Assembly: GCA_964493085.1 (NCBI GenBank)
Contig: CAZBLV010000013.1
Location: 2,033-66,032, forward strand
Length of the DNA stretch: 64,000 nt
Reading direction: 5' to 3'
From: an uncultured Candidatus Saccharibacteria bacterium
Lineage (GTDB): Bacteria; Patescibacteriota; Minisyncoccia; Minisyncoccales; GWA2-38-27
Shown here: piece by piece, positions 7,665 through 59,547 of the stretch
Numbering within the stretch: position 1 is the first letter of the stretch
Layout: every line of letters begins with the position of its first letter
Notes under the pieces: model-generated
Told to the model about the DNA's origin: nothing
What the model saw: only the letters and a program-made list of their open reading frames with translations
The model's database searches: none
Translations under genes and position numbers: made by a program

Positions 7665-7689
7665 GCCGGGGGCGCCCGGCTCTTTTTTT
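7665..7689 (+). terminator. rho-independent terminator after rpsI
   Basis: GCCGGG-ggcg-CCCGGC hairpin (7665-7680) followed by a T-run (7681-7689). Confidence 0.75.
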
Positions 7690-7737
7690 AAGTTTAAAAA
7701 AACTGCCTGATATCAGATTCTAAAAATAATAGATTCT

Positions 7738-9096: not shown

Positions 9097-9204
9097 GCCA
9101 ATAGTGAATTTTACCAGAAAAACAAAAATATCCAAGTTTTTGTACTTCGCATTCCTAGCTTCGCTTGTCATTTGCTTAATTTTGGACTAAGATAGTATAT
9201 AAAG

Positions 9205-10518: not shown

Positions 10519-10521
10519 GAT

Positions 10522-11529: not shown

Positions 11530-11533
11530 TATT

Positions 11534-12463: not shown

Positions 12464-12465
12464 TT

Positions 12466-13020: not shown

Positions 13021-13023
13021 AAA

Positions 13024-14109: not shown

Positions 14110-14112
14110 CAG

Positions 14113-16406: not shown

Positions 16407-16408
16407 TC

Positions 16409-16723: not shown

Positions 16724-18128
16724 AGAATTAACTATAAAAAAAATAAACCAGGGACTGAAAAACAAAGAATTTTCTGCTGTTGATTTAACCAAAGAGTATT
16801 TTTCCAAAATCAAAGAAAAAGACAAGGAAATATCTTCCTTCATAGTTCTTACTGAAAGATTAGCCGAAGAGCAGGCTCTTAAAGTAGACGAAAAGATATC
16901 CTTAGGAAAAGAAATTTCTGTTTTGGCGGGCGTGCCAATGGCTGTAAAAGACAATATTTTAATTAAAGGATCCAAAACAACTTGTGCTTCCAGAATGCTT
17001 GAAAATTACAACCCCCCCTATGAGGCAACCTGTATTAAAAAATTAAGAGAGGAGGGAGCTGTTTTTTTGGGGAAAACAAATTTAGACGAGTTTGCAATGG
17101 GGGCCTCTACTGAAAATTCCGCCTTTTTCCCGACAAAAAACCCTCATGACCCAGAAAGAGTCCCTGGCGGAAGTTCCGGAGGGTCGGCGGCTGCGGTAGC
17201 GGCTGGATTCTGCCCTTTTGCTTTGGGCTCTGATACCGGCGGCTCCATCAGGCAGCCTGCCTCTTTTTGCGGCGTAGTGGGACTGAAGCCTACTTATGGC
17301 GCGGTTTCCAGATACGGACTGGTCGCCTACGGGTCTTCTCTTGACCAAATAGGGCCTCTTGCCAAAAATGCGGAAGACGCTGAAATAGTTTTTGAAAGAA
17401 TTTCAGGGAAAGACGACCATGACTCTACTAGCTTAGCTAGAAAGCCGTCTTCGTCCGTTCCCAAAAAGATTGATAAGATGGTTATCGGGGTGCCCAAAGA
17501 ATACTTCCAAGAGGGCCTTGATTCCGGGGCAAGAGAGGTAATAATGCGGAAGATTAAAGAATTCGAAGATTTGGGGGCTAAAATAGAAGAGATTAGCCTG
17601 CCTCATACAAAATATGCGGTTTCTGCCTATTATTTAATTGTTAATTCCGAAGCTTCTACTAATTTAGCCAGATACGACGGCATAAAATACGGACTTTTCG
17701 AAGAGGGAGATAATCTGAAAGAAGTATATTCAAAAACAAGGGGACAGGGCTTTGGGAGCGAAGTCAAGAGAAGAATTATGCTGGGAACCTACGCTCTTTC
17801 TGCAGGATATTATCAAGCATATTATTTAAAAGCCCAAAAAACAAGAACCCTTATTGCTCAAGATTTCTATAAAGCTTTTGAAAAAGTAGATGTTATAATG
17901 GCTCCGGTAGCGCCAACGCCTCCTTTTAAGCTTGGAGAAAAAATTACGGATCCTCTGGCGATGTATCTTTGTGACGTTTATACGGCACCCGTAAGCTTAG
18001 CGGGTCTGCCTTCCCTTTCTTTGCCGGCCGGCTTTTTGGGGAAGTTGCCCATAGGCTTGCAAATCATCGGGAAGCCCTTTGGAGAAAAAACAATTTTTAA
18101 TATCGCCAAACAGGCTGAAAGGCAATAA
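16713..18128 (+). CDS. gatA: Asp/Glu-tRNA amidotransferase subunit A
   Basis: Amidase signature [39 protein letters not shown] at 16713; the tracked TTG at 16707 is also possible. Confidence 0.9.
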
Positions 18129-18682
18129 TGAACTTTATTAACAAAATTATATCTCTTTTTTCCAGGTTATTTTCTGAAGAAACATACTATTTCATAATAG
18201 ATCCGGAATTTGAGGGATGGCTGCTTATTGCCAGAAACGCCTTTCTTTTTGTCTCCGGGATTCTTTTACTGCTTTTGGTAATTCTTTTAGTTGTGTCGGG
18301 CTGGATAAGAAATCGCTATACAGAAGACCTGTACGAAGCCACTTCTTACAAGCCCTTCGGCGTCAAGCAGTCTGCTAAAGAGTGGAAAAGAATATCCGCA
18401 AGAATTAAAAGCGGGGAAGAATCGGATCACAAGCTGGCCTTGATTGAAGCGGATGATCTGTTGGAAGAAAGATTAAGGGCTATGGGATATAAGGGAGGCA
18501 AAATGCAAGATCTTTTGAGTCAAGTTCCGGGAACTATTCTTCCCAATGTCGAGGAGGTAATCCGAGTGCATCAATTGCGCAATAACATTGTTCACGATCC
18601 CGACTATAAGCTGGATCCGGAAGAAGCCAGCGAGGCAATAAGCATTTTTGAGAGGGCTCTCCAAGAACTGGGAGCAGTTTAA
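18128..18682 (+). CDS. hypothetical membrane protein
   Basis: One TM helix (FLFVSGILLLLLVILLVVSGW) followed by a helical soluble domain. No motif recognised. Confidence 0.55.
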   Translation: MNFINKIISLFSRLFSEETYYFIIDPEFEGWLLIARNAFLFVSGILLLLLVILLVVSGWIRNRYTEDLYEATSYKPFGVKQSAKEWKRISARIKSGEESDHKLALIEADDLLEERLRAMGYKGGKMQDLLSQVPGTILPNVEEVIRVHQLRNNIVHDPDYKLDPEEASEAISIFERALQELGAV

Positions 18683-18726: not shown

Positions 18727-18797
18727 CGCGGGGTGGAGAAGTAGTATCTCACGAGGCCCATAACCTCGGGACGCGGGTGCAATTCCCGCCCCCGCAA
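18727..18797 (+). tRNA. initiator tRNA-fMet (anticodon CAU)
   Basis: Hand-folded cloverleaf. The acceptor CGCGGGG/CCCCGCA carries the bacterial initiator C1:A72 mismatch. Anticodon arm is CGAGG-CCCAUAA-CCUCG. No CCA is encoded. Confidence 0.8.
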
Positions 18798-18808
18798 CAA
18801 TTTTAATA

Positions 18809-18880
18809 GCCGGTGTAGCTCAGTGGCAGAGCGGAGGACTCATAAGCCTTAGGTCGCAGGTTCAAATCCTGCCACCGGCA
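18809..18880 (+). tRNA. tRNA with CAU anticodon (elongator Met or Ile2/lysidine type)
   Basis: Acceptor GCCGGTG/CACCGGC, D arm GCTC-AGTGGCA-GAGC, anticodon loop CTCATAA, T arm GCAGG-TTCAAAT-CCTGC. G27:U43 and an A31-G39 mismatch were noted. No CCA is encoded. Confidence 0.75.
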
Positions 18881-18886
18881 TATTTT

Positions 18887-18961
18887 GCGGACGTAGCTTA
18901 GCTGGCTTAAAGCGCCGCCCTGTCACGGCGGAGATCGTGGGTTCAAATCCCATCGTCCGCG
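18887..18961 (+). tRNA. tRNA-Asp (GUC)
   Basis: Acceptor GCGGACG/CGTCCGC, anticodon arm CCGCC-CTGTCAC-GGCGG, T loop TTCAAAT. No CCA is encoded. Confidence 0.85.
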
Positions 18962-19084
18962 CTTTAAGGAAAAATCATTATTTTTTGACTCGAAAATCTG
19001 GCGATTAGGCTGGAATTTTTTTATGCATTTTTCCCCAATTTTTACCTTGATTCAGAAGGATTTTTAAGGTAAAATAAGTATAAT

Positions 19085-20083
19085 ATGGACTTAAATGAAA
19101 TAAAAGAAAAAGCCCTAGAGGAGGCGAAAGCAGCCCAGAATGCAGAGGATTTAGCTGTTTGCAGAAAGAAATATTTAGGCAAAAAAGGGGAGTTGACAAA
19201 GATCTTTTCTTCGCTTAAGAATTCTTCGCAAAAAGCTGAAACAGGGGAAAAAGCTAATGAATTGAAAAAAGAAATAGTAGCAATTCTTGAAGAAAAAGAG
19301 AAATCTTTTAAAACCCAGAAGAGCAAGAAGAGAGAAGCTCTTGATATAACTATTCCAGCCGAGAAAGTGGAGACAGGCCACCTGCATCCTCTTACGCTTA
19401 TTAGGAGAAAGATTGAAGAGATTTTTCAGGGAATGGGCTTTTCTGTTGCCGAAGGACCTGAAATTGAGACCGAATTTTATAACTTCGATGCCTTAAATAT
19501 CCCCAAAGAGCATCCGGCACGGGATCTTTGGGACACTTTTTATTTAAAGGACGGGACGCTTTTAAGAACCCACACTTCCCCTGTGCAGATAAGGTACATG
19601 GAAAAGAACAATCCCCCTCTTAGAATCATAGCCCCGGGCAGGATTTATAGACATGAGGCAACAGACGCCTCTCACGACTTCCAGTTTTATCAGGTAGAAG
19701 GGCTGATGGTGGGGGATAATATCTCTGTTGCTAATTTCAGGGCTATTATTCAGGAATTTTTATCCCAGTTTTTCAGAAAAGCAATAAAAATCAGGTTGAG
19801 ACCCGGTTATTTCCCTTTCACAGAGCCTTCTTTTGAAGTAGATATTGCATGCATTGTTTGCAAGGGCAGGGGGTGCAGCGTTTGTTCTAATACCGGATGG
19901 CTGGAGTTAATCGGAGCTGGCATGGTTCATCCCAACGTTTTAAAGTCAAGCGGCCTTAACCCAAAAAATTGGCAGGGGTTTGCCTTCGGAATCGGAATGG
20001 ACAGGCTTGCGATGATGAAATACAGGATTGACGATATAAGGCTGTTCCGGTCCGGAGATACAAGATTTTTAGAACAATTTTAA
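19085..20083 (+). CDS. pheS: phenylalanyl-tRNA synthetase alpha subunit
   Basis: HPLTLIRRKIEEIFQGMGF, LLRTHTSPVQIRYM, FRHEATDASHDFQFYQVEG, GFAFGIGMDRLAM. Confidence 0.95.
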   Translation: MDLNEIKEKALEEAKAAQNAEDLAVCRKKYLGKKGELTKIFSSLKNSSQKAETGEKANELKKEIVAILEEKEKSFKTQKSKKREALDITIPAEKVETGHLHPLTLIRRKIEEIFQGMGFSVAEGPEIETEFYNFDALNIPKEHPARDLWDTFYLKDGTLLRTHTSPVQIRYMEKNNPPLRIIAPGRIYRHEATDASHDFQFYQVEGLMVGDNISVANFRAIIQEFLSQFFRKAIKIRLRPGYFPFTEPSFEVDIACIVCKGRGCSVCSNTGWLELIGAGMVHPNVLKSSGLNPKNWQGFAFGIGMDRLAMMKYRIDDIRLFRSGDTRFLEQF

Positions 20084-25812: not shown

Positions 25813-25868
25813 ATAGATGCTTTTAAAGGGCTTTGACAGCCCTTTTTTTAAATGTATTATTAATTAAA

Positions 25869-26489
25869 ATGATTGAGAATACTAACCAAGGAAAATTTAT
25901 TGTTTTTGAGGGCCCGGACGGATCAGGCCAAAGTACTCAGGTCTCCTTATTAAGGGATTTTTTAATAGAGAAAGGACATCAGGCGATTATTACCAAAGAG
26001 CCCACCCTGGACTCTGAAGCAGGCAAGAAAATAAAAAAGGTCTTAGAAAAAGAGGTTGAGGCAAGCCCGGAAGAGCTCCAGGAACTGTTTGTTCAAGACA
26101 GAAAGGAACATCTAGAGAACCTGATTATTCCTGCCTTAAAAGAAGGGAAATTCATTATATCTGATCGCTATTTCTTTTCTACTTTTTGCTTCGGAGCCGC
26201 TGCCGGTCTTGATATGGAAGAGCTAATCAAAATGAATAATGATTTTTTGCTTCCAGACCTCACTTTTATACTAAATGTTAGACCCGAAGTCTGCGTCCAA
26301 AGAATTACAAATAGGGGAAGCAAGAAAACGCTTTTTGAGGTAAAAGAAAGATTGGGAAAGGTAATGGAGAATTACAAGAAAATGCCTTCCCGATTTGAGA
26401 ATGTTAACCTTGTTAATGGCGAACAGCCAATAGGAAAAGTTTTCGAGGACATAAAAGAGGTTGTTTACTTAGAAATTTTAAATAAATAA
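25869..26489 (+). CDS. tmk: thymidylate kinase
   Basis: ATG 25869; P-loop FIVFEGPDGSGQSTQ; DRYFFST. Confidence 0.85.
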   Translation: MIENTNQGKFIVFEGPDGSGQSTQVSLLRDFLIEKGHQAIITKEPTLDSEAGKKIKKVLEKEVEASPEELQELFVQDRKEHLENLIIPALKEGKFIISDRYFFSTFCFGAAAGLDMEELIKMNNDFLLPDLTFILNVRPEVCVQRITNRGSKKTLFEVKERLGKVMENYKKMPSRFENVNLVNGEQPIGKVFEDIKEVVYLEILNK

Positions 26490-26495: not shown

Positions 26496-27182
26496 ATGGC
26501 AGAGATATTAAAAAACGCGGGCTCTCACAGAATTCTTTCCATAATGGCGGGCCTGGAAGGAGAAAACCCGCTTCAGCTGATTGAAGTTGCTGGAAGGACT
26601 GCTTATCAAAGCAGAGATAAAGTTGACGACGAATCGGCAGCAAAGTTTGTAGAAATGATAAGAAAAAGGGGGCATGAGTCAGTGTTAGAGCATTCTTGTA
26701 TGGCAGTGGAATTTGATAATGTCTGCCGAGGATTTACCCACGAGCTGGTTCGCCACAGATTGGCAGCTTACACCCAAGAGTCCACGAGGTATGTTGACGA
26801 GAGCGACTTTAAGGTAGTTGTTCCTCCCGATAAAGACGCCAGCGAAAAATTGGTAGATCTTAATCTTCCGAATGGAGAAAAAACGAGAGTTTCTTTTAAA
26901 GACTGGGTTGCCCTTAACGAACAAATGTACAGGGGATTGAGAAAAGCAGGATGGGTTCCCCAGGACGCCAGGCAGACCCTTCCCATAGGAATCAAGGCCC
27001 AAATTGTAGCTACGGCTAATTTTAGGGAATGGCGTCACATTTTTACTTTAAGGTGTTCTCCTGGGGCTCACTGGGAAATAAGAAGAGTAATGACAAATCT
27101 CTTAAAAGAGGTAAAAAAGAGAATTCCGGTTGTTTTTGACGACTTTGAAATTTCAGAAGAGGGCGCCCAGAAGAAATCATAA
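26496..27182 (+). CDS. thyX: flavin-dependent thymidylate synthase
   Basis: ThyX signature ELVRHRLAAYTQESTRY (RHRxxSxxxxSxRY-like). Confidence 0.9.
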   Translation: MAEILKNAGSHRILSIMAGLEGENPLQLIEVAGRTAYQSRDKVDDESAAKFVEMIRKRGHESVLEHSCMAVEFDNVCRGFTHELVRHRLAAYTQESTRYVDESDFKVVVPPDKDASEKLVDLNLPNGEKTRVSFKDWVALNEQMYRGLRKAGWVPQDARQTLPIGIKAQIVATANFREWRHIFTLRCSPGAHWEIRRVMTNLLKEVKKRIPVVFDDFEISEEGAQKKS

Positions 27183-31276: not shown

Positions 31277-32899
31277 TTAGTGAATTTCTTCCTTTTTTTC
31301 CTTTAGGAAGTATCGCCATTGTTCTATGAATTCAACGAAAACCATAAAAGGCATATCTATAAGAGCGTTGAAAAAAGCCGAGATTACATTGTACTTTTTC
31401 CATCTTACAGTAAGCCACTTGCCAAGCTGGACCACTGGAACGGCGAAGGGGTCGAATATGAAATGAAAAAAAGTTTCTTTTTCCTCTATTATCTGCAACT
31501 CCTTGGATCTTTGCCTTATCTTGGCTCCGGCAAAAGCAATCAAAGAAAGGAATATGATAAAGATAACATGAGAGAGCGGAGGAAAGTTTACTTGATAAAG
31601 CCCCCATATTATTAACGTCAAGAAAGCAGCGGAGCTTAGAAGATAAATAAAATTAATTATAGAGCGGATAACTGTGCCACCTTTGCGATAGGCCTTGACT
31701 TCATAGATGTCTTCTATCTCTGTCTTGTAAGCTATCTTCATAATCTCAACTATTACCTGTTGGAGATTCTTCCTTTTGGGAGGTTTTATAGAAACCACTA
31801 GCAAGGCCATCAGCAAGGTAGGGACAAAGATGTCCACTCCGATAGCGAATAAGCTGAAGTTTCCCATTACGTATTTTGAAAAAGGGATTTCAATAGCAAG
31901 CAGAGAGACAATATTAGTTAAAAATATAGAAAGGGTAGAATAAAAAGCCGCTCTTCCAAGGCGCGACTTTAGGGTTTTGAGGCGATTTTTATATTTTTCT
32001 GTGGCTTTTTCTTCTAAAATTTCCGGGTCATTGATTTTTTCTTCTGCATCCAGGGGAAACTCTTCTATAACGTCTCCTAAAATAAGGTAAGGGGTATCGT
32101 ATTTTTCGCAAATTTGATAAAATTTGTCTCCCAGGGGATGAGCGAGATCTTTCTCCAGCCTATCCCAGACAGAATAAATGTTTTTAGTAATCTCTTCTGT
32201 CTCTTTTGGAGACTGATTTTTCCAGGTTGGATAGTAATATTTTAAAAGATGATAGCTTATAACAGGAGAATCTAAATTAAACAGGGCTCTTTGTACCGCG
32301 ATATATGTTTGGATGTTTTTTTCCTCCTCTGGTATTCCGTTCTTTACTATCAAGCCCTCGTTTATTCTTATCTTGTCTTTCATCTGGGAGAACATATAAT
32401 CAATTAATGCCCGCTCTTTGGAAGCAGAGGTGAGAATCTCTTCTATTTCGCAGGCCGCTATTGAAAACAGCCAGTTGTAAAGCCTTATCTTGGATTTTTT
32501 CTTTTGGGCAGGACTGTTATTAATAATATGGGTATATTTTTCAATTGTTCTCTGGACTTCTGCTATTTTTTCCTCTTCAATTTTATCGTTGGGAAAGTGG
32601 CCGCTCCTTATCAGGTCTAAGACCATGGGCTCTGCCAGGTTTTCCACTTCAAAACTGCCGCTTAATAGATCGGCTTTTGAATAGACTCTTCTTTTGAGTA
32701 TTCTCTCTATAGCCCCTCTTTTTAAGAGATGCTCTTCTTTCCAGTCGATAATGCCCCTTAGCTTTTCATAAAAAGCCGCTACCTTAGAGGCTACTTCGTC
32801 CACATGGATTGTGTTTGCTTCTTTTGCGGGCTTCAAAGACCGGCTCCAGGCCTCGTATCTCGCTATTAGCTTTTTAGTTGCCTCGGAAATTTCTTTCAT
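31277..32899 (-). CDS. hypothetical polytopic membrane protein (540 aa)
   Basis: Long ORF with a ~300-aa soluble helical N-terminal region followed by several TM helices. No motif recognised. Confidence 0.6.
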   Translation of the reverse strand: MKEISEATKKLIARYEAWSRSLKPAKEANTIHVDEVASKVAAFYEKLRGIIDWKEEHLLKRGAIERILKRRVYSKADLLSGSFEVENLAEPMVLDLIRSGHFPNDKIEEEKIAEVQRTIEKYTHIINNSPAQKKKSKIRLYNWLFSIAACEIEEILTSASKERALIDYMFSQMKDKIRINEGLIVKNGIPEEEKNIQTYIAVQRALFNLDSPVISYHLLKYYYPTWKNQSPKETEEITKNIYSVWDRLEKDLAHPLGDKFYQICEKYDTPYLILGDVIEEFPLDAEEKINDPEILEEKATEKYKNRLKTLKSRLGRAAFYSTLSIFLTNIVSLLAIEIPFSKYVMGNFSLFAIGVDIFVPTLLMALLVVSIKPPKRKNLQQVIVEIMKIAYKTEIEDIYEVKAYRKGGTVIRSIINFIYLLSSAAFLTLIIWGLYQVNFPPLSHVIFIIFLSLIAFAGAKIRQRSKELQIIEEKETFFHFIFDPFAVPVVQLGKWLTVRWKKYNVISAFFNALIDMPFMVFVEFIEQWRYFLKEKKEEIH

Positions 32900-43103: not shown

Positions 43104-44105
43104 ATGCTAAAGAGTGCCAGCGGTGCGGCCGGCAAGACGTATTTGTTGACTCAGACGCTTTTTGAACATCTTTCCGCATTTAGTTGGATCGGCCTTCAGA
43201 TTCCCCCCCGAGATTTCATCGAAGAGATCGAGAAGAAGGTCGGCCAGCTTGTAGAAGAGATGTTCGCCGGGACCCAAGTCTCGGTGGAAACTCTTTCCGC
43301 TTCAGATTTATTCGGTGCGCTTGTTTCTTCTGTTCAGGACGTTAAGAAAAGCAATCCCGAACTCGTTTTCGTGAGCACTGCTCCTTTGATGGCCTACGAG
43401 GTAGAGGGAGAGTGTGTCCATCTTAATCGTCTTATTGATTGCTCGGGTGAACTTATCGGAATTGGCCCGCGTCCTGGTCATCCGAAAATAGAGGCGCAGT
43501 TGTCTTATCTTCCGAGGGGTGAAAAGAGCCTGGTTATCATTGAGGACGGATCCTTTACGGGAGGGACCATGCAGGCTCTCCTTGGGATCCTGGGCCCCGA
43601 AAGAGTTAGAACAATTGTTCTGGGCATTCTCTTTCCGAGAGCCGCTGATGTTCTTGAGAAGAATTTTGACGGTGAAGTAATCTGCAACAGGAACGAGAAG
43701 GACGATCTCATTGATTGGGTTCCTTCTCACGACTTTCTTCCTTTCATGCCTAACAACGGAAGGGTCGTCGGAAGTTTTCTGGGGAAGAGCTGTTTTCCCG
43801 TTTATCTTTATAACCATGCAAGTCTTTGTATGCCCTATATTCTTCCCTACGGCCGGCCCGAGGAATGGGCTTCCATCAGGGGAGAAAAAGCCAAGATCTG
43901 CCAGTTCAGCATACATTGTATTCAGCTGGCTCTGCAGATTTTCGAAGAGATGGAAAGAATTAACGGCAAGAAAATCACTGTTCAGGATGTGGTTTTCTCC
44001 AGTCCAAGGACCAGCCTTCCTATTGCCCCTAATCAGGGAGGATTTACCGAGCTAAGCGAGAGGGTGACATCGATTCTTTCAGAGGACATTAAGTACCTGG
44101 CCTAA
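43104..44105 (+). CDS. type I phosphoribosyltransferase-fold protein, substrate unknown
   Basis: Central PRPP-loop-like motif SLVIIEDGSFTGGTMQ, followed ~45 aa later by LIDWVPSHDF, reminiscent of the purine-PRT hood. There are unassigned ~130-aa N-terminal and ~110-aa C-terminal regions. Confidence 0.55.
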   Translation: MLKSASGAAGKTYLLTQTLFEHLSAFSWIGLQIPPRDFIEEIEKKVGQLVEEMFAGTQVSVETLSASDLFGALVSSVQDVKKSNPELVFVSTAPLMAYEVEGECVHLNRLIDCSGELIGIGPRPGHPKIEAQLSYLPRGEKSLVIIEDGSFTGGTMQALLGILGPERVRTIVLGILFPRAADVLEKNFDGEVICNRNEKDDLIDWVPSHDFLPFMPNNGRVVGSFLGKSCFPVYLYNHASLCMPYILPYGRPEEWASIRGEKAKICQFSIHCIQLALQIFEEMERINGKKITVQDVVFSSPRTSLPIAPNQGGFTELSERVTSILSEDIKYLA

Positions 44106-52644: not shown

Positions 52645-52679
52645 AAAAAAGCGCCCTGCTTTTGGCCAGGGCGTTTTTT
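52645..52679. terminator. bidirectional rho-independent terminator after rplL
   Basis: CGCCCTG-cttttggc-CAGGGCG, flanked by an A-run and a T-run. Confidence 0.75.
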
Positions 52680-54558
52680 ATATCCCAATTTGATAAACCT
52701 TATTGCCGTTCAGTATCCAGGCCGTTTCTCCTGTTTCAGAGATTGCCAAATCCCTTAAATCAGTAAACTTATTGCTCCGGATTTGCTTGACCACCTGTGC
52801 TTTTTCTTTGTCGACAATTATTATTCTCTTTTGGCTCGGCTCTAAAAGATAAAGATAGGGGAGGGCAGCGTTTGTGGTTATCCTTTCTATTTTTTCAATA
52901 AAGGGGAAAATGTCTAACTTAACCTCTTTTTTTAAGACGCCCTGGTAGAATTCCCAGATCTTGTTTTCTTCGCCCAAAATCCAGACAGATCCGTCTATGG
53001 CCAAAGATTTTGGTTTGGAGCAGGAAAAATCATCTTCCAGCCAGTTTCGGGGAACTCCCCATTGAAGTTTTGCTACGGACGGGTATTTTACAATCTGGCA
53101 GTCTCGGGTTAGGAAATAAATGCTGGACCAGTAGCTGACCGCGTCTACAAATTCTTCCTTCCAGGGCTCTATGCTTTTTGAAATCCAGCCCTGTTCATCA
53201 AGGGAAATAATATTTTTCGGCGGAGAATAAAAGATTGCTTTATTCTGGTAATTGGCAGCCAGGCTAATCGGTTGGTTGCTGGGCACAAACTGCTCTTTTG
53301 GATATATTTGATATACGCCCCCTTGACTCTGCAAATAAACAGAATCTCCTGCTGCCAAAATACTAACAGCGTTTGGCCCTTGAGAATCTATTTCCGACAC
53401 AATAACCGGGTTTTCTATCTCCTCTAGATTGTTAAGGCGGAACAACTTTTGCTCCGTGGTTTCTTTAAGGTCCTCAACCCTGGGAGTCGAGGGAAGCAGA
53501 GAGATTTCTTTCCAGGCCTGTTTTAATAAATCATTGGCTTCTTCTTTTTGGTCAAAAAGAGAATAGTTTTCCGCTTCTGCTATCTTTTTTTCCACCTGGC
53601 TTATTTTCTTTTCCGCTTCCGCTTTCTTGTTTTCTTGGCTTTGCCTGAAGATCAAAAATCCCAGAAGCAAAATCGCTAAAAGAAGTAATATCAAAATCAC
53701 TTTTTTAGAAAGCCGGAAAGGAACGGAAATTCTCTTTTTTGTTCTTTTTTTTGGCGACTTCTTAAATGTTTTTCTCTTTAGTCTTCTGATGGGAGCCAGG
53801 ACAGGATCAAAAACGCCTTTCCAAGAAAAACTTTTCTGATTTTGAAACAGCATAGTGGTTGGACTTTCTTTTTTCAGCTCCTTTTTAAAAGCCAGAATCA
53901 TAAGAGCTCCAGCCGTCTCTGCCCCGTCTTCTTTTTTAAAAAGGGAAGAGGGAAGTATTTCTTTGATTTCCTTTTCTTCTATTTCTCCTCCCTTGTCAGC
54001 TAGTCGGGATAGCAGCCCCTTTTTTGACAGAAAATCGTAGACTTTTTCCGTCATCATCATCATTAAATCGCTCTGTTCTATTTTTCCTGAAATTACATTG
54101 AAAAAAACTTTCAGCGGGTAAGGATCTATTTCTTGCTTTTCTAAACCTCCGCCTATGTCTATAATATTCCCTGCTCTGGCCAGCAGGATTTTTATATTAC
54201 CTGTTTTGGTGAAACTTAATTCCAGCCCCTTTATCGAGAGGACGGCAAATCCAAGATTACCTAGCCAATGGACATTGTTCCGCTGAACCTCTTCTGACAG
54301 AAAAGAATTAGCCGACCTTAGCGAGTTAGTTAAAGAGGTTTCCGGCTTTCCGACCAAAGAAGAGTAAAAGTTTTTTTTGATATTTTCTGCTAAATCATTT
54401 AAGAGCCTTAGGTCTTGGGGAAGGGAAGATTTCACTTCTCCTAAGGCGTATAGTCCTCCCATTCTTTTTTCTGAGGCTTTCTCCGGGCGGTAGATGAAGG
54501 TGTCGAAAGAATAGTCCTTTTTTGCTTTTGGATTGAAGTGGAGTTCGAATATCTGCAT
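52678..54558 (-). CDS. hypothetical bitopic membrane protein (626 aa)
   Basis: A ~270-aa cytoplasmic N-terminal domain, a central TM helix (VILILLLLAILLLGFLIF), a coiled-coil stretch, and a C-terminal repeat-like beta-rich region. No motif recognised. Confidence 0.6.
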   Translation of the reverse strand: MQIFELHFNPKAKKDYSFDTFIYRPEKASEKRMGGLYALGEVKSSLPQDLRLLNDLAENIKKNFYSSLVGKPETSLTNSLRSANSFLSEEVQRNNVHWLGNLGFAVLSIKGLELSFTKTGNIKILLARAGNIIDIGGGLEKQEIDPYPLKVFFNVISGKIEQSDLMMMMTEKVYDFLSKKGLLSRLADKGGEIEEKEIKEILPSSLFKKEDGAETAGALMILAFKKELKKESPTTMLFQNQKSFSWKGVFDPVLAPIRRLKRKTFKKSPKKRTKKRISVPFRLSKKVILILLLLAILLLGFLIFRQSQENKKAEAEKKISQVEKKIAEAENYSLFDQKEEANDLLKQAWKEISLLPSTPRVEDLKETTEQKLFRLNNLEEIENPVIVSEIDSQGPNAVSILAAGDSVYLQSQGGVYQIYPKEQFVPSNQPISLAANYQNKAIFYSPPKNIISLDEQGWISKSIEPWKEEFVDAVSYWSSIYFLTRDCQIVKYPSVAKLQWGVPRNWLEDDFSCSKPKSLAIDGSVWILGEENKIWEFYQGVLKKEVKLDIFPFIEKIERITTNAALPYLYLLEPSQKRIIIVDKEKAQVVKQIRSNKFTDLRDLAISETGETAWILNGNKVYQIGI

Positions 54559-54632
54559 TAATATATTATAACTAGCAGAAACAGAAAAGCAAAAGGTTTA
54601 CTCTTAACAAGCAAAGTTATAAAATGGTAGCG

Positions 54633-54707
54633 GGACGGTTGGCTCAGCGGCAGAGCGCTTCGTTCACATCGAAGAGGACGCAGGTTCGATTCCTGCACCG
54701 TCCACCA
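54633..54707 (+). tRNA. tRNA-Val (CAC) with encoded CCA
   Basis: Acceptor GGACGGT/ACCGTCC, D arm GCTC-AGCGGCA-GAGC, anticodon arm CTTCG-TTCACAT-CGAAG, T arm GCAGG-TTCGATT-CCTGC, discriminator A, then CCA (54705-54707). Confidence 0.85.
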
Positions 54708-54732
54708 AACAGGATTCTGCAAAAGACAAAGA

Positions 54733-54807
54733 GGTTTGCTCACCGCGCCTGCGGGCGCGGCTCGCAAGGAACGAACCGCCTCATTTCCGAAAAAATTTCG
54801 CGGCGAA
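54733..54807 (+). repeat. repeat element copy A (inverted partner at 56561-56643)
   Basis: Its parts are GGTTTGC, the hairpin CCGCGCC-tgcg-GGCGCGG (54743-54760), CCGCCTC (54776-54782), and the 24-mer TTTCCGAAAAAATTTCGCGGCGAA (54784-54807). Confidence 0.8.
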
Positions 54808-54838
54808 TTAAAGGAAAATTTTTTATTTTTGTTTGTTG

Positions 54839-54870
54839 CAGAAATTCTGATGAATTTCTGTTTTTGTTTT
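54839..54870 (+). terminator. rho-independent terminator downstream of tRNA-Val and repeat A
   Basis: A perfect 9-bp stem CAGAAATTC-tgat-GAATTTCTG followed by TTTTTGTTTT. Confidence 0.75.
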
Positions 54871-54980
54871 AAAAACTTTATTTTTTCTATGTTTTTTGGT
54901 AATGTGCGTTAGAGGAGGGTCAAGCTGGTGCTTGGCTCAATTTGTACCTCGAAAACCAAATACAGGAAAGGATAATCGTC

Positions 54981-55742
54981 ATGATCAGTAACGCAACGTC
55001 AGACAGACTCGCCCTTGAAGTTTTGAGGGCCGACACGCTGGAACTCAGAGCGGTCCCAAAGAAGGTGACCAACGAAGAGGTAGATAGTCTACCTCTCAAC
55101 GTGCAGCCGTTTCTTTACGCCTCGGGCAACTGGGGGCCTGGTTATCTCATGATTAAGGGTTTGGTCGGCAATAAGCCGCTGATCAGATGCCTTGGTCGCT
55201 ACTTGGCGCTCGAAATCGCCGAGAAATGGCCGACCGAAATCGATTTTGTTGCTGGCAACGTTACCGGCGGCATGATCCCGGGCTGGTTGATCAGCGAAGA
55301 GTTGGAAGTCCTTCTCGGTAAGCGGATTCCATTCGTTTATATCCGGGAACTTCGGAAGACCGGCGGTCAGAAGGAACTCATCACCGGCTACCAAAAGAAT
55401 CGGGAAATTCCTCCCGGCTCCAGCGGTTTGGATATGGAGGAACTGGTTAACTTCGCCCAGACCATTGCCAACGGCGCGATTTGCCTTCGCGAAGTGGGAT
55501 TCGTCTGTACGAAAGGTGCTTGCATCCTTTACTACGACAATCCTGTTGCGAACAAGGATTTGGCCGCCGCCGGAATCGAGATGGTTTCGTTGCTTACCCT
55601 CCCAAGGATCATCGACGTGGCCGAGCGGTTTGGTACACACCCCAAGGAACTTTTGGTCGAGTACCGCGAGTTCCTGAAAAATCCGTTGCAATGGCAGGCC
55701 GATCGCGGTCTGGCGCATGTAGAAAGAGGGGGTACGAAATGA
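54981..55742 (+). CDS. orotate phosphoribosyltransferase-family protein, divergent PRPP-binding loop
   Basis: ATG 54981 has an AAAGGA Shine-Dalgarno. It is colinear with PyrE: FLYASGNWGPGY (compare FxLxSGxxSPxY), DFVAGNVTGGMIPG, FVYIRELRKTGGQKELITG, and the C-terminal LVEYREFLKNP. The canonical VDDVxTxG loop reads MEELVNFAQT. Confidence 0.7.
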   Translation: MISNATSDRLALEVLRADTLELRAVPKKVTNEEVDSLPLNVQPFLYASGNWGPGYLMIKGLVGNKPLIRCLGRYLALEIAEKWPTEIDFVAGNVTGGMIPGWLISEELEVLLGKRIPFVYIRELRKTGGQKELITGYQKNREIPPGSSGLDMEELVNFAQTIANGAICLREVGFVCTKGACILYYDNPVANKDLAAAGIEMVSLLTLPRIIDVAERFGTHPKELLVEYREFLKNPLQWQADRGLAHVERGGTK

Positions 55743-56431
55743 AAAATCCATTTCTTTTCGTGGCACTCGACGACCTTGGCAACAAGGAATGGGAAACCCT
55801 GGAGGTTGTTCGAGAATTGGATCAAGTACCCGGCAATTTCGGGTATAAAATCAATCTTGACTGCCTAATGGCTGGAGGCGTCAGTGCGACTATCCGTAAA
55901 CTGCTAGTTTCGCGTCCGATCTTTGCCGACACTAAGACATGGAACGGCAAAAGGACAATGGCCGACCTCGCCAAGATGCTGGTTGACGCCAGCGTGGACT
56001 ACTTTAATGTCTGGGTTCAAGCGGACGATCAGCTCGCAGGCGCGGTCAAGGCCACCGAGGGTTCTAAGACCAAGATTCTCGGAGTTACCGTGCTCACTCA
56101 TTACAGTGATGATTGGTGCAGGATGTATTTCCGCCGCTCGCTTGAGGAGACAGTTGTTTTTCTTACTCAGCGAGCAAAGGATCTCGGTTTGCACGGCGTT
56201 GTTTTGCCGGGAACTTGCTTGCCAGCGGTCATGGACAGCGATCGGATCAAGACCGTGCCCGGAATCCGTATGGAGGATTTCAAGGACGATAGGCACAAGC
56301 AGGAGGTCACTCCGGAATTCGCAACTCAAAACGGAGCGGACATAGTCGTGTGCGGAAGCCCGATCATGAAGGTTTCCGACAAGGCGAGCGCGCTTCGTCA
56401 GGTTCTTGCGCGATTGACTGTCACACAGTGA
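55739..56431 (+). CDS. orotidine-5'-phosphate decarboxylase-family protein (short bacterial type), altered catalytic motif
   Basis: ATG 55739 overlaps the upstream stop (ATGA). Motifs: FVALD, YKINLD, FADTKTWNGKRT (DxKxxN instead of DxKxxD), VTVLTH, VPGIR, and IVVCGSPI. Confidence 0.7.
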   Translation: MKNPFLFVALDDLGNKEWETLEVVRELDQVPGNFGYKINLDCLMAGGVSATIRKLLVSRPIFADTKTWNGKRTMADLAKMLVDASVDYFNVWVQADDQLAGAVKATEGSKTKILGVTVLTHYSDDWCRMYFRRSLEETVVFLTQRAKDLGLHGVVLPGTCLPAVMDSDRIKTVPGIRMEDFKDDRHKQEVTPEFATQNGADIVVCGSPIMKVSDKASALRQVLARLTVTQ

Positions 56432-56506
56432 ACAACAAGAGGTCCAGCGGCACCTCGTCATAACAAGACAAAGCCGCTTTTTTCTTTGCCAAAACTTTCC
56501 TTTAAA

Positions 56507-56522
56507 TCAGAAAATTTTCTGA
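56507..56522. promoter_or_regulatory. perfect 16-bp palindrome TCAGAAAATTTTCTGA
   Basis: Exact dyad symmetry in the 357-nt gap between the two island modules. It could be an operator-like site or a hairpin. Confidence 0.35.
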
Positions 56523-56560
56523 AATAAGTTGTGATTAACTTATAGTTTTTATTGTTAAAG

Positions 56561-56643
56561 TTCGCCGCGAAATTTTTTCGGAAAGCGAGGGCGAGGCGGG
56601 ATTTTGCGAAACGCCGCAGGCGTTTCTCTCAAAAAAGGTTTGC
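56561..56643 (-). repeat. repeat element copy B1 (inverted copy of 54733-54807)
   Basis: 56561-56584 is the exact reverse complement (24/24) of 54784-54807. GAGGCGG (56593-56599) and the hairpin GAAACGCC-gca-GGCGTTTC (56608-56626) sit in equivalent positions. Confidence 0.8.
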
Positions 56644-56676
56644 GTATTTTTAATTATAGTCCACCAAATTGAATTA

Positions 56677-56708
56677 GTCGCCTCGTTTGAGAAAAATTTT
56701 TTGGGAGG
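56677..56708. repeat. repeat element B2 (inverted partner at 59509-59542)
   Basis: AGTCGCCTCGTTTGAGAAAAATTTTTTGGGAGG. Its reverse complement aligns by hand with 59509-59542 at about 28 of 33 positions. Confidence 0.6.
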
Positions 56709-56788
56709 ACTTGAAAAATACAGGTCAAATGATAATCTAAATTCGGTAAAGTGTTCTTTCAAAATTACATAAACAGGAGGAAAATGAG

Positions 56789-58180
56789 ATGAAAACACGC
56801 GACCAGTTCGACAGTCTCTCACCGGTTGACTACCGATACTGGGATGAAGAAGTGGCGAAGTATCTCTCCGAGAACGGGTTTACCCGCTACAAGCTTCTCG
56901 TGGAGCTTGCGCTTGTGAGAGCGCTTCACCGCCGTGGAATTTGTCCCGAAGTTGCCGTCAAAGAAGTTGAGACGGCGTGCGGCCGAGTTACGGCCGCCGA
57001 AGTTTACAAGGAAGAAGACCGAATCCGGCACGACATCCGTGCGCTCGTGAACTGCATCCGCGCCGAAGTTAGCGATGTAGCGAAGCCGTACGTCCATATG
57101 ACGGCGACTTCGTTTGATATTGTTGATCCGGCGAACGCGGCTCGCTACAAGGATGCGATCGAGAAAGTACTTGTTCCGTCGCTTACCAAGCTGGAAGGAG
57201 TGCTCATCGCTACCACGCTCCGCGAAGTAGAGACGGTGCAAGTTGGCAGAACTCACGGACAGCACGCCGTACCGATTACGTTCGGATTCGCACTAGCCGG
57301 ATATGTAAGCCGTCTCGGCAACTCTATCGAAAAATTGAGTACGCTCGCCAAAGAATTGCCGGGTAAGTTTTCCGGAGCGGTCGGAGCGTACAACGCCTCC
57401 TCGCTGTTCTTTAATGATCCGGAGAGCTTTGAGGCGGAAGTCCTCGCCGAACTTGGATTAATTGCGGCGGAACACTCGACGCAGATCGTGCCGCCGGAGG
57501 CGTTGACGCGCCTCTTCTGCGAAGTTACGATTGTGGCGGGCATTTTCGCCAACTTGTCCGACGACATGCGGAATCTTCAACGGACAGAGATCGGAGAAGT
57601 GGGCGAAGAGTTTGAAGCGGCGCAGGTCGGTTCCTCGACCATGCCACAGAAACGCAACCCTATCAACTTTGAGAACGCCAAGAGTTGTTGGAAAATCGTC
57701 GCGCCGCGAATCTTGACGGTGTTCATGGACCAAATTAGCGAACACCAGCGTGACCTTACCAATTCCGCCTCCGCGCGGACTTACGGCGAGATTGTCGCAT
57801 ATGTGGTTTCGATCGCAAAGCGACTCACGCGCACCATGAAGAAGCTCACTGTTGACCGCGTTAACTTGGAGCGCAACCTCGCTATGCAGAAGGGCTTGGT
57901 GGTTGCGGAGCCGCTCTACATTATCCTCGCCGCGCTTGGACACCCCGACGCTCACGAGAAGGTGCGGATGCTCACACTTCAAGCCCAACACGAGGTGCGA
58001 CCACTCGAAGAAGTTGTTTTCGGCGATGTGGAGATACAGGGTTATCTTAAACGGATGACTCCCTACCAACGGCAGATTATCTCTAACCCGTCTCTATATA
58101 CGGGCATCGCCGCCAAGAAAGCGAAAGTGGTCGCGGAAAGATGGCAGCAAAAACTCAATCTCAATAGAAAGGAGAGATAG
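56789..58180 (+). CDS. purB: adenylosuccinate lyase
   Basis: SPVDYRY at the N-terminus; GRTHGQHAVPITFG; fumarate-lyase signature GSSTMPQKRNPINFEN. AGGAGG Shine-Dalgarno upstream. Confidence 0.85.
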   Translation: MKTRDQFDSLSPVDYRYWDEEVAKYLSENGFTRYKLLVELALVRALHRRGICPEVAVKEVETACGRVTAAEVYKEEDRIRHDIRALVNCIRAEVSDVAKPYVHMTATSFDIVDPANAARYKDAIEKVLVPSLTKLEGVLIATTLREVETVQVGRTHGQHAVPITFGFALAGYVSRLGNSIEKLSTLAKELPGKFSGAVGAYNASSLFFNDPESFEAEVLAELGLIAAEHSTQIVPPEALTRLFCEVTIVAGIFANLSDDMRNLQRTEIGEVGEEFEAAQVGSSTMPQKRNPINFENAKSCWKIVAPRILTVFMDQISEHQRDLTNSASARTYGEIVAYVVSIAKRLTRTMKKLTVDRVNLERNLAMQKGLVVAEPLYIILAALGHPDAHEKVRMLTLQAQHEVRPLEEVVFGDVEIQGYLKRMTPYQRQIISNPSLYTGIAAKKAKVVAERWQQKLNLNRKER

Positions 58181-58181
58181 A

Positions 58182-59456
58182 GTGAACAGCACAGTGCAGT
58201 TACTGGCAGAGGGAAAGACGAAGAAAATCCTGACAGCGGAAGCTCCAGGACAAGTGATCGTCGAATCCAAGGACGATCTTACCGCTGGAGATGGTGCGAA
58301 ACACGACATCATCGCTGACAAGGCATCACTCTCGAACAGAACTACGTCGAATGTGTTCCGGCTTCTCAAGGCATGCGGCATTCCGGTCGCTTTCCTTGAT
58401 GGGGTGGACGAGACGCGATTCCTCGCAGAGCAGTGCGACATGATTCCCTACGAAGTGGTTGTCAGGCGAGAGGCGCACGGTTCGTTCCTCAAGCGTTATC
58501 CGGGAATTCAAAAGGGGCATATTTTTCCGCGCCTTCTGTTGGAGTTCTTTCTGAAGACTTCTGGCAGGAAGTGGAAAGACGCCGATCTCCCGAAGGACGA
58601 TCCCTTCATGCGTTTCGATGAGAATCGTGCTTTGCTGTATCTGCCCGATCAGCCAATCCATCAACAGACACCGTTTCTGATTCTTGACGATTTTCCTTTG
58701 CGGGAGTCGCCTGACGGAATCAAGCAAATCAGCAAAGTTGCCGTCAAGACCTTTCTCATTCTGGAGAAAGCGTGGCAACTCGTTGGGCGGAGACTGGTGG
58801 ACTTCAAGGTGGAGTTCGGAACGAACACTGCGGGAGAGGTACGGCTCGCTGACGTGATCGACAACGATTCGTGGCGGGTGCTTGACGAAGGAAAATACAT
58901 CGACAAGCAACTTTACCGCGACGGCGCGGATCTCAACATCGTCACAGCGAAGTACCGACTGGTAGCAGAGTTAACCAGTAACTTCAGCCTACCGCGCCAA
59001 CAGATTATTCTCTGGCGAGCTTCAGCGTCCGATGACCTGAAGGCATTTGAGGACGCTATCGCGGCTTACGGTGCGAACAAGGCTTGCGATGTGGAAATCG
59101 CAACTTGCTCTCTTCACAAGGATCCGATTCGAGCGTGCGAAGAAGTCGCTAGACTGGTGCAGGAAGTTCCCAACTCCGTAGTGATTGTCTTCTGCGGAAG
59201 AAGTAATGGAGCGGGGCCGACTCTGTCCACGCAATGCACTGTGCCGGTAATCACGGTTCCAGCAACGTGGCGGGAGTTCCCCGAAGATGTGTGGTCATCG
59301 CTCCGCACGCCGAGCGAGACGCCGGTCGTTACAATCCTCGATCCTAAGAACGCTGTTCTTTCGGCGCTTCAAATTCTTGCGATGGGAAACCCACGGCTCT
59401 ATGCCGAGCTTCGCTTTCGGCAAGAGAAGCGTCTCCACAATATTATTAGACTCTGA
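58182..59456 (+). CDS. bifunctional SAICAR synthetase / AIR carboxylase fusion (PAICS-like, PurC-PurE)
   Basis: GTG start 1 nt after the purB stop, with an AAGGAG Shine-Dalgarno. The N-terminal half has AEGKTKKIL, SKDDLTAGDGAKHD, GSFLKRYPG and LADVIDNDSWR. The C-terminal half has PurE-like WRASASDD, CGRSNGAGPTLS and DVWSSLRTP. Confidence 0.8.
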   Translation: MNSTVQLLAEGKTKKILTAEAPGQVIVESKDDLTAGDGAKHDIIADKASLSNRTTSNVFRLLKACGIPVAFLDGVDETRFLAEQCDMIPYEVVVRREAHGSFLKRYPGIQKGHIFPRLLLEFFLKTSGRKWKDADLPKDDPFMRFDENRALLYLPDQPIHQQTPFLILDDFPLRESPDGIKQISKVAVKTFLILEKAWQLVGRRLVDFKVEFGTNTAGEVRLADVIDNDSWRVLDEGKYIDKQLYRDGADLNIVTAKYRLVAELTSNFSLPRQQIILWRASASDDLKAFEDAIAAYGANKACDVEIATCSLHKDPIRACEEVARLVQEVPNSVVIVFCGRSNGAGPTLSTQCTVPVITVPATWREFPEDVWSSLRTPSETPVVTILDPKNAVLSALQILAMGNPRLYAELRFRQEKRLHNIIRL

Positions 59457-59467
59457 CGAGCTGACGA

Positions 59468-59508
59468 AGGGGTATTACCAGAAATGGCAATACCCCTCTT
59501 TTGTTTTT
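59468..59508 (+). terminator. rho-independent terminator ending the island operon
   Basis: An AGGGGTATT(a)CC-agaaat-GG(c)AATACCCCT hairpin followed by TCTTTTGTTTTT. Confidence 0.75.
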
Positions 59509-59547
59509 CCACCCAAAAATTTTTCTCGAACGAGAGCGGCTCGCGGG
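59508..59547. repeat. repeat element C (partner of B2) with a degenerate copy of the tRNA-Val 3' end
   Basis: TCCACCCAAAAATTTTTCTCGAACGAGAGCGGCTCGCGGG. It shares GCGGCTCGC with copy A (54757-54765). Confidence 0.6.

Follow-up and report, generated by a model that had tools for sequence, protein, structure and literature searches.

Four genes for enzymes of nucleotide metabolism stand together immediately 3' of a tRNA-Val gene in a reduced bacterial genome, and the locus raises the question of whether they form one pathway or were brought to one site by separate transfers. The stretch analysed, which we call the window, comprises 64,000 nucleotides (nt) of contig CAZBLV010000013.1 (positions 2,033 to 66,032, forward strand; assembly GCA_964493085.1) from an uncultured Candidatus Saccharibacteria bacterium, and the island that holds the four genes lies at 54708-59547 in window coordinates. 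A sequence-only reading had described the island as a self-contained set of five cooperating activities and had left two options: (a) horizontally acquired patches of the pyrimidine and purine pathways, or (b) one dedicated pathway to a carboxamide ribotide. We consider it probable that the island consists of two separately acquired foreign cassettes stacked at tRNA-Val, that the cargo of the first probably converts orotate to uridine 5'-monophosphate (UMP), and that the two do not cooperate. The tRNA and the four genes are as follows.

54633..54707, plus strand: tRNA-Val (anticodon CAC), the integration landmark (ARAGORN; Rfam tRNA, 69 bits)
54981..55742, plus strand: enzyme resembling orotate phosphoribosyltransferase (PRTase), 253 amino acids (aa) (NCBIfam pyrE, PDB matches, AlphaFold2 model, family alignment)
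55739..56431, plus strand: enzyme resembling orotidine 5'-monophosphate (OMP) decarboxylase, 230 aa, with DxKxxN and GSP in place of DxKxxD and GR (Pfam PF00215, NCBIfam, PDB profile, family alignment)
56789..58180, plus strand: adenylosuccinate lyase PurB, 463 aa (Pfam Lyase_1 and ASL_C; TIGR00928)
58182..59456, plus strand: PAICS-like fusion (PurCE) of an N-terminal synthetase for succinylaminoimidazole carboxamide ribotide (SAICAR) and a C-terminal carboxylase for aminoimidazole ribotide (AIR) of probable class II PurE type, 424 aa (Pfam SAICAR_synt and AIRC)

Candidate Phyla Radiation (CPR) bacteria are thought to depend on their hosts for nucleotides. According to the picture that we favor, a CPR genome of about 41% GC would have acquired two cassettes of about 53% GC independently beside tRNA-Val: cassette 1 (about 54708-56668), with the PRTase and decarboxylase genes, and cassette 2 (about 56669-59545), with purB and purCE. 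They would be neighbors because tRNA 3' ends are integration hot spots, and not because their products cooperate. Cassettes of small size, for making UMP in two steps and for steps in the middle of the purine pathway, would then move between CPR genomes at tRNA sites, showing how reduced genomes patch their metabolism by gene transfer.

Foreign composition of the island

The rest of the window encodes the housekeeping set of a reduced genome (ribosomal proteins, aminoacyl-tRNA synthetases, GatCAB, MreB, DNA polymerase III and ClpB), and the named relatives of its proteins are Patescibacteria, namely Falkowbacteria, Nealsonbacteria, Berkelbacteria and Parcubacteria. GC content is 42.0% for the whole window and 41.2% outside the island. 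Against this background the four island open reading frames (ORFs) have a GC of 0.525-0.546 and a third-position GC (GC3) of 0.60-0.64, compared with means of 0.414 (standard deviation 0.029) and 0.406 (standard deviation 0.037) for the 58 other ORFs; the corresponding z-scores are +3.8 to +4.5 for GC and +5.3 to +6.3 for GC3, and no window ORF other than the island genes exceeds a GC3 of 0.52. Codon use differs as well between host and island: ATA makes up 0.38 versus 0.03 of isoleucine codons, AGA 0.48 versus 0.16 of arginine codons, and GCG 0.11 versus 0.43 of alanine codons. The compositional shift that the sequence-only reading had noticed is thus real. It does not begin exactly at the 3' end of the tRNA, because the rise is restricted to the ORFs and the non-coding DNA of the island is host-like: the 273-nt stretch between the tRNA and the PRTase gene (54708-54980) has 39.9% GC, and GC dips to 36.7% in the 357-nt spacer between the two gene pairs (56432-56788). 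Nor does GC climb to about 63%, as had been estimated; 500-nt windows across the island reach 56% at most. All four genes are under purifying selection, with ratios of nonsynonymous to synonymous divergence (dN/dS) of 0.06-0.15.

As had been supposed, the window holds no further pur or pyr gene in a Pfam scan of 30 ORFs located at 0.2-45.5 kb and of the 45-64 kb region (in 0.2-45 kb covering ORFs above about 200 aa), and a TBLASTN search of the window with CPR PurM, PurL, PurQ, PurP and GuaA gave zero matches. The nucleotide genes nearest to the island encode thymidylate kinase (25833-26489) and ThyX (26496-27182). An Rfam E-value scan of 54.0-60.2 kb returned the tRNA only, and a riboswitch or other known RNA in the leaders was rejected on this ground. 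ARAGORN additionally called a permuted 'tmRNA*' at 54611-55366, overlapping tRNA-Val and the first 386 nt of the PRTase gene; because Rfam detects no tmRNA there, we treated this as a false call.

Independence of the two gene pairs

Two tightly coupled gene pairs make up the island, as had been seen from the sequence: the decarboxylase gene overlaps the PRTase gene by ATGA, and the PurC-PurE fusion starts with a GTG 1 nt past the purB stop. To place the pairs in other genomes we surveyed one genome per GTDB species, which yielded 38 loci with the PRTase, and added six metagenome contexts (individual loci are cited below by number, as L003). The decarboxylase gene directly follows the PRTase gene in 32 of the 38 loci and was recognized through Pfam in one more; of the other five loci, four are truncated where the contig ends. 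PurB or PurCE lies within 10 kb of the PRTase in none of the 38 genome loci and none of the six metagenome contexts. The purine genes have distributions of their own: purB stands alone in L070 and L071 (83-84% identity), purCE stands alone in L009 and L010 and also lacks purB on the short contigs L061 and L062, purCE follows purB in L060 and L063, and it lies inside a full pur operon in L011. Among the loci sampled, only the window has the first pair next to purB-purCE, and each gene pair has its own terminator, promoter region and flanking repeats.

These results bear directly on the proposal that all four genes serve one dedicated pathway, from a free heterocyclic carboxylate to a carboxamide ribotide of the aminoimidazole carboxamide ribotide (AICAR) type or to an antimetabolite. 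The five activities are physically adjacent in the window, the first pair has altered motifs, and both pairs have a similar foreign GC, all of which would fit such a pathway. Yet neither purB nor purCE occurs within 10 kb of the pair at any other locus (32 genome loci and the six metagenome contexts), the purine genes have separate distributions and a canonical operon context, the signals that flank the two pairs are separate, and PurB and PurCE have canonical signatures, PurCE aligning end to end with PAICS. We therefore give a single pathway very little credence, and the notion of a self-contained set is not supported. The option of horizontally acquired pyrimidine and purine patches is strongly supported, refined to two separate mobile cassettes at a tRNA. 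The altered motifs could hide new chemistry only for the first pair on its own.

At a few loci other purine genes occur within 10 kb of the pair: guaB (L035), guaA (L013), purL/purQ (L036) and a PurF-like gene (L056). Chance alone, roughly estimated, would produce about as many, and we did not use them as a link between the pair and purine metabolism. In L035, a Berkelbacteria chromosome, the IMP dehydrogenase gene guaB is immediately upstream of the pair (8675-11373), and in L056 the PurF-like gene, for a glutamine amidotransferase of 473 aa, is 0.9 kb downstream of it.

From these separate distributions and from the occurrence of PurCE in a canonical operon, we predict that PurB and PurCE are ordinary purine enzymes. 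PurB scores 286 bits with TIGR00928, just below the cut-off of 326, contains the fumarate-lyase signature intact (GSSTMPQKRN, for GSSxMPxKxN), and has homologues of 75-89% identity across Patescibacteria. The fusion aligns end to end with insect and human PAICS (E values of 1.6e-62 and 1.2e-57; 424 versus 425 aa), its residues 6-421 matching residues 14-413 of 4ja0 at an E value of 1.6e-62. It shares with the animal enzyme (2h31, 4ja0) the domain order, the length and the class II-type motifs (S-x-H-K and GRSNGxGP), and it would likewise need no PurK. It differs in being bacterial and Patescibacteria-wide (more than 3000 homologues, of which the named ones are Patescibacteria), in an insertion of about 40-60 residues in the PurC part (at about residues 117-180), and in being carried with purB on a mobile cassette of foreign GC.

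Class II PurE is told from class I by the motifs SLHK and GRSNGAGP. Both are present in the PurE half of the fusion, matching PAICS, and the window contains no PurK. The stand-alone PurE proteins that the fusion matches in the PDB are 2ywx, 3rg8 and 5c5d only; we take 3rg8 to be the class II PurE of T. denticola, and presumably none of the three is a class I structure. PAICS is PurC fused to class II PurE, whereas most microbes use PurK with class I PurE (PMC10484210). A 'human-type' PAICS fusion that is widespread in Patescibacteria bears on the origin of the animal enzyme, and also on the assumption that class I PurE with PurK is the general microbial route. Cassette 2 would supply the canonical steps from AIR through its carboxylated form (CAIR) and SAICAR to AICAR without PurK, plus the conversion of adenylosuccinate to AMP. 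A complete de novo purine module is present in about 32% of 399 CPR genomes assembled from metagenomes (MAGs) (PMC11608272). In L011, a CPR contig of 523 kb and 35% GC, a complete-looking purine operon of native composition (5427-18268) contains two purP-like paralogues, guaA, PurC-PurE, a purB of ADSL_C type that differs from the window purB, purM, purL, purQ and purD. We take its PurP-like genes (Pfam DUF1246/DUF1297) to encode archaeal-type FAICAR (formyl-AICAR) synthetases.

Cassette 1 as a probable mobile element at tRNA genes

Cassette 1 has moved between genomes. Copies of the pair that are 82-93% identical in protein sequence have 52-57% GC in hosts of 39-49% GC (L013/L023, L017/L025, L019, L022, L024 and L026), each in a different neighborhood, and their non-coding arms are 85-97% identical between copies in unrelated contexts. 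Long inverted repeats surround the pair in L019 (177 nt, 97%) and L022 (140 nt, 100%). Of 25 distinct contexts, about 10 have a tRNA no more than 500 bp from the pair.

Two further insertion sites, tRNA-Asp|pheS and tRNA-Tyr|tRNA-Thr, are seen in their empty form in the window. Its 13-24 kb region is syntenic with the Nealsonbacteria-like contigs L003 and L006 (M50, ProRS, MreB, GatC, GatA, tRNA-Met-Met-Asp, PheS, PheT, GyrB), and the gap between tRNA-Asp and pheS is 122 bp in the window versus 2.4-3.1 kb with the cassette in the two relatives (window 18727-19085; L003 7125-11717; L006 7986-12089). The insert consists of the pair plus a sigma factor and a tyrosine integrase in L003, or plus a LAGLIDADG protein in L006. 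Likewise, tRNA-Tyr and tRNA-Thr are 4 bp apart in the window versus 1980 bp with the cassette in L024.

At tRNA-Val in the window, cassette 1 has the following layout.

54700..54709, plus strand: attL-like core GTCCACCAAA, the tRNA 3' end plus 2 nt; exact repeat at 56659-56668
54709..54723, plus strand: left-junction motif of the element, ACAGGATTCTGCAAA; same motif after other tRNAs
54736..54767, no strand: GC-rich palindromic hairpin H1, left arm of the element (fold -20.7 kcal/mol, z -1.5)
54784..54807, no strand: left I1 arm of an inverted repeat; its 24 nt are 100% complementary to 56561-56584
56446..56484, plus strand: terminator-like hairpin with T-run, end of the first transcription unit (fold -11.3 kcal/mol, z -2.8)
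56561..56584, no strand: right arm of inverted repeat I1, complement of 54784-54807
56598..56668, plus strand: conserved right arm of the element, with hairpin H2 (56606-56626), the end ...ATAGTCCACCAAA and an attR-like core (56659-56668)

The tRNA 3' end is thus repeated directly at the far border: the 10-mer GTCCACCAAA has exactly two copies in the window, at 54700 (the 3' end of tRNA-Val) and at 56659 (the right border of cassette 1). Directly after it on the left comes a 15-nt motif, ACAGGATTYTGYAAA, which is also found directly 3' of tRNA-Lys in L019 and of tRNA-Tyr in L024; a fourth copy (L016 34-48, minus strand) lies near a tRNA-Val-like stretch of a locus in which no tRNA was called. 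Hairpin H1 is homologous to L019 7934-7965 and 9599-9630 and to L022 971-1012, and left-side DNA homology with the other copies runs as a continuous block from 54779-54881, with shorter pieces back to the tRNA end. The right arm is 86-91% identical to the right ends of L013 and L019, where homology stops at 56664 and 56668, respectively; the arm ends resemble a tRNA 3' end (...TCCCACCA or ...GTCCACCA). The terminator-like hairpin at 56446-56484 is conserved in L013, L019, L022 and L024. I1 is unique in the window, and 0 of 100 shuffles gave two matches; its 24-nt arms appear to be what is left of arms that measure 140-177 nt in L019 and L022.

L019 shows an intact-looking arrangement, in the order tRNA, core, large serine recombinase, inverted core, PRTase and decarboxylase, core. 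There the gene for the large serine recombinase separates tRNA-Lys from the cassette, and the core (CCACCAGACAGGATTTTGCAAA) recurs in direct orientation at both ends of the full 3.9-kb unit. A tyrosine integrase adjoins the pair in L003-L005, and a LAGLIDADG protein does so in L006/L007. From this adjacency we infer that the recombinases may act in mobilizing the cassette. Compared with L019, the recombinase segment and the outer part of the left arm are missing from the window copy, which has the appearance of a remnant, without recombinase, of a small integrative element that would insert immediately 3' of tRNA genes.

In L019 a 209-nt inverted repeat of 100% identity (7889-8097 and 9467-9675), which begins within the 3' end of tRNA-Lys, surrounds the serine recombinase gene and points to an invertible segment or a duplication made by the recombinase, although it may be an assembly artefact. 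The copies in L022 (1343-1585) and L024 (9840-9985) have about 230 nt more than the window copy between the promoter region and the PRTase start, in the form of an 80-aa ORF or a structured leader.

Several observations weigh against an integrative element at this site. The exact part of the direct repeat is only 10 nt; the window contains no recombinase; tRNA-Val in L013-L016 points away from the cassette, so that integration geometry is not uniform; and synonymous divergence (dS) to the nearest copies is 0.44-0.9. The transfers were therefore not very recent, and a high GC3 that has lasted consequently needs a GC-rich donor pool. Because purB has native composition in the GC-rich Parcubacteria L070 (61% GC) and L071 (52% GC), Parcubacteria of 52-61% GC are a likely pool. 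In L060 and L061, by comparison, the cassette 2 genes are GC-rich (51-55%) between flanks of 39-42% GC.

The same divergence could be taken to mean that the island genes are native, that their GC reflects selection on amino-acid content or expression, and that the repeats are ordinary regulatory or terminator elements. GC is also higher in the island at the first and second codon positions (GC1 0.60 and GC2 0.39, versus 0.49 and 0.35 elsewhere), and in L003 and L006 the GC of the pair is only modestly raised (0.42-0.44 versus 0.34-0.38). We nevertheless find native origin very improbable: GC3 is 0.62 versus 0.41, the same cassette occurs together with its non-coding arms in unrelated contexts and in hosts of differing GC, syntenic relatives carry it at a site that is empty in the window, and recombinases adjoin it in other loci. 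An assembly chimera, in which GC-rich fragments of other organisms were misjoined into a CPR contig, would also produce a sharp change of composition in a metagenome assembly. It would, however, require three precise mis-joins that return to the same genome, in a contig present in two public records (JGI 3300001533 MLSed_10000020, 131,900 nt, and NCBI/Logan, 131,935 nt); moreover, the spacers within the island are host-like, and the junction at the tRNA 3' end is reproduced at other tRNAs in independent assemblies. We regard a chimera as extremely improbable.

Among known systems, cassette 1 most resembles the tRNA-targeting integrative elements and genomic islets, with which it shares the insertion site immediately 3' of a tRNA, borders that both carry a short direct repeat of the tRNA end, a foreign composition, metabolic cargo, a recombinase beside the cargo (in L019 and L003) and the stacking of two cassettes at one tRNA. 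It differs from them in its very small size (about 2 kb, or about 3.9 kb if the recombinase is included), in its use of several tRNAs (Val, Lys, Tyr and others), and in a window copy that lacks the recombinase by which it would presumably be mobilized. Long (140-177 nt), hairpin-rich inverted repeats around the cargo set it apart from integrase-type islands. As a small recombinase-less unit of one or two genes with structured repeats in many contexts, it is also reminiscent of integron cassettes and of cargo-bearing elements like the miniature inverted-repeat transposable elements (MITEs). We rejected an integron cassette, since the window has no integrase, intI, a single 3' site of attC type and a cassette array are all lacking, the repeats are inverted on both flanks, and the unit has its own promoter-like and terminator regions; a transposase or target-site duplication typical of MITEs was not seen. 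A phage origin was likewise rejected, as two IMG/VR scans and a TBLASTN search against 50,697 phage records gave no close relatives, just matches to proteins like orotate phosphoribosyltransferase (OPRTase) at 25-27% identity. PADLOC gave zero matches for six proteins, and an anti-phage defence system was rejected on that ground. For a group that has hardly any genetic tools, cassette 1 offers a concrete mobile element that is open to experiment.

The boundaries of cassette 2 are marked by similar features.

56682..56704, no strand: left I2 arm (23 nt; 91% complementary to 59512-59534) of the inverted repeat around purB-purCE
59466..59508, plus strand: intrinsic terminator that closes the second unit (fold -20.4 kcal/mol, z -4.0)
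59508..59534, no strand: right border of cassette 2; core-like TCCACCCAAAAA at 59508-59519, which overlaps the right I2 arm at 59512-59534 (homology end and repeat)

The terminator stem is kept with changed bases in L060, L067, L010 and L061. Homology of cassette 2 with L060 and L067 passes the terminator and stops at 59523-59542, near the island end set by the sequence-only reading. The I2 core resembles the core of cassette 1, and the core-like TCCACCCAAAAA would be a third att copy, fitting successive integrations at the same tRNA.

Function of the cassette 1 enzyme pair

The cargo of cassette 1 is a PRTase of OPRTase fold, translationally coupled to a decarboxylase of the OMP decarboxylase (ODCase) family. 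The true start of the PRTase is the ATG at 54981 and not an upstream TTG, giving the 253 aa found in all homologues. It has no Pfam match, and its PDB matches are OPRTases only, by sequence and by family profile (best E value 7e-19). Its AlphaFold2 model (predicted local distance difference test score 91.4) has the type I PRTase fold with the hood and dimer loop of OPRTases, and all of the top 30 Foldseek matches of the model are OPRTases, the best being that of B. cenocepacia (4ohc/9e5g; TM score 0.74-0.78 normalized to the query and 0.84-0.89 to the target). The 24-member family alignment shows conservation of the flexible-loop region (PFVYIRExRKxGGQKELITG) as well as of an acidic pair. The enzyme resembles long-form PyrE (NF001729; 4ohc/9e5g) in its fold, its Arg/Lys-rich flexible loop (YIRELRKxGGQKELITG), the acidic pair before the phosphate loop and the C-terminal helix motif ...P(L/A)xW..., and differs from it in overall identity (22%), in an N-terminal extension of about 40 aa and in the 5'-phosphate loop, which is an invariant VNFAQT where PyrE has TTG(G/T)S or TTDSRS.

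The decarboxylase matches Pfam PF00215 at 73 bits, well above the gathering score of 27, and a 21-member profile of its family matched 16 PDB sequences, all of them ODCases (best E value 2e-28). The Asp-Lys-Asp-Lys residues D11, K37, D64 and K66 are invariant and correspond to Asp11, Lys33, Asp60 and Lys62 of the B. subtilis ODCase (1dbt). Coupling to a PyrE-like gene is a further likeness to PyrF, and the same two activities are fused in eukaryotic UMP synthase. It departs from PyrF in the replacement of Asp65 by Asn, of the base-contacting Ser by His or Arg and, in most members, of Gly-Arg by Gly-Ser, as well as in a new conserved Arg and in scores below every NCBIfam equivalog cut-off.

On this basis orotate-to-UMP salvage is the likeliest function of the pair: imported orotate, or a very close analogue, would react with phosphoribosyl pyrophosphate (PRPP) and be decarboxylated to UMP, a two-step pyrimidine nucleotide route for a host without de novo pyrimidine synthesis. 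The module from UMP to UTP/CTP, de novo steps excluded, is present in 55% of the 399 CPR MAGs cited above, and de novo pyrimidine synthesis is absent from the list of frequently complete modules (PMC11608272).

The altered catalytic motifs pointed out by the sequence-only reading are real and family-wide (EELVNFAQT; DxKxxN; GS), and they speak against orotate as substrate. In the PRTase, the acidic pair of the PRPP motif is retained as EE, but the 5'-phosphate loop EELVNFAQT, invariant in the 24 family members, does not fit the (D/E)D-x-x-T-(T/A)-G-x-(T/S) of OPRTases. In ODCases, the third Asp of DxKxxD is needed for full activity, and this residue and the Arg of the phosphodianion gripper are each worth several orders of magnitude in kcat/Km. 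The window decarboxylase reads D64-x-K66-x-x-N69, so that the third Asp (Asp65 in B. subtilis) is N69; Asn stands there in 19 of 21 aligned members and Lys in L056; the L041 protein, translated separately and outside the alignment, has His. At the gripper, G206-S207-P208 aligns with the VVGR of 1dbt, 3ru6 and 3tfx: Pro is invariant, Gly and Ser are nearly so, and Gly-Ser replaces Gly-Arg in most members. The base-contacting Ser (LTS) is His or Arg in this family, which also has an extra, nearly invariant Arg in the motif N-G-x-R-T. All four island proteins score under the NCBIfam equivalog cut-offs, the first pair by wide margins (PRTase, 59 versus 245 bits for NF001729 and 22.6 versus 106.8 for TIGR00336; decarboxylase, 93 versus 193 for NF001273 and 75 versus 92 for TIGR01740). 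Finally, no orotate source or transporter was identified. The loop anomaly of the PRTase carries less weight than it might, because the closest solved OPRTase (4ohc) has a non-classical loop too (VEDLTTDSRS) and the same C-terminal extension.

The substitutions that run through both families at substrate contacts leave some probability that the substrate is a different one or that the ODCase active site is compensated. The pair alone may have been neofunctionalized, joining some carboxylated heterocycle that is not orotate to a ribosyl donor and then decarboxylating it, or acting on a differently phosphorylated ribotide, to yield a non-canonical nucleotide. The changes fall exactly at the substrate contacts of the decarboxylase, the new Arg is nearly invariant, and the replaced PRTase loop is fixed throughout the family. 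The family is rare (about 456 clusters at 90% identity among 5.8 billion proteins) and mostly confined to episymbiotic CPR, with some loci from MAGs labelled DPANN, and pyrB, pyrC and pyrD were not seen near any copy of the pair. Yet every match by sequence, profile or fold is to an OPRTase or an ODCase, the catalytic Lys and the first Asp are invariant, 4ohc, the nearest solved OPRTase, also departs from the classical loop and has the C-terminal extension, CPR proteins are divergent in general, and CPR genomes require a source of UMP, which the pair would provide. We judge neofunctionalization unlikely, though not negligibly so. With the same reserve we entertain the broader suggestion that the pair is a distinct two-enzyme module, largely of episymbiotic CPR with some DPANN-labelled loci, in which both partners have remodelled their contacts to ribose-5-phosphate and base (EELVNFAQT; DxKxxN, LTH, GS, NGxRT) and which would make or salvage a ribotide other than OMP or UMP, or would decarboxylate OMP without two residues held to be essential, and that it is carried by a miniature element, not described before, that targets tRNAs and has long inverted repeats. 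No description of the PRTase/decarboxylase pair in CPR turned up in the literature. OMP decarboxylase is a textbook enzyme for catalytic proficiency, and a natural, strongly conserved ODCase family without the third Asp and the gripper Arg would reveal either a compensated active site or a new substrate.

We considered the archaeal members of the family as a link to canonical pyrimidine operons and rejected them. L056 (1431-10094), binned as Bathyarchaeia, is probably a mis-binned bacterial contig, because its SecA and mechanosensitive-channel genes are ordered as in the CPR locus L019. In L041 (Aenigmatarchaeota, 9455-11847), where the decarboxylase is even more divergent, the PRTase is a tandem duplication of 408 aa with a partial and a full PRT domain, and its decarboxylase-like neighbor reads DxKxxH and is without the GSP motif.

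Elsewhere in the window, a lone histidinol dehydrogenase (PF00815, 45726-46913) adjoins the histidyl-tRNA synthetase in otherwise biosynthetically poor surroundings. Two full-length MreB paralogues, each scoring about 463 bits with MreB_Mbl, lie 4 kb apart (10522-11529 and 15354-16406), and L006 has the same layout. Five large ORFs of 333-626 aa have no Pfam match: 52678-54558, 31277-32899 and 7738-9171 on the minus strand, and 2329-3606 and 43104-44105 on the plus strand. The 626-aa member of this group stands directly before tRNA-Val.

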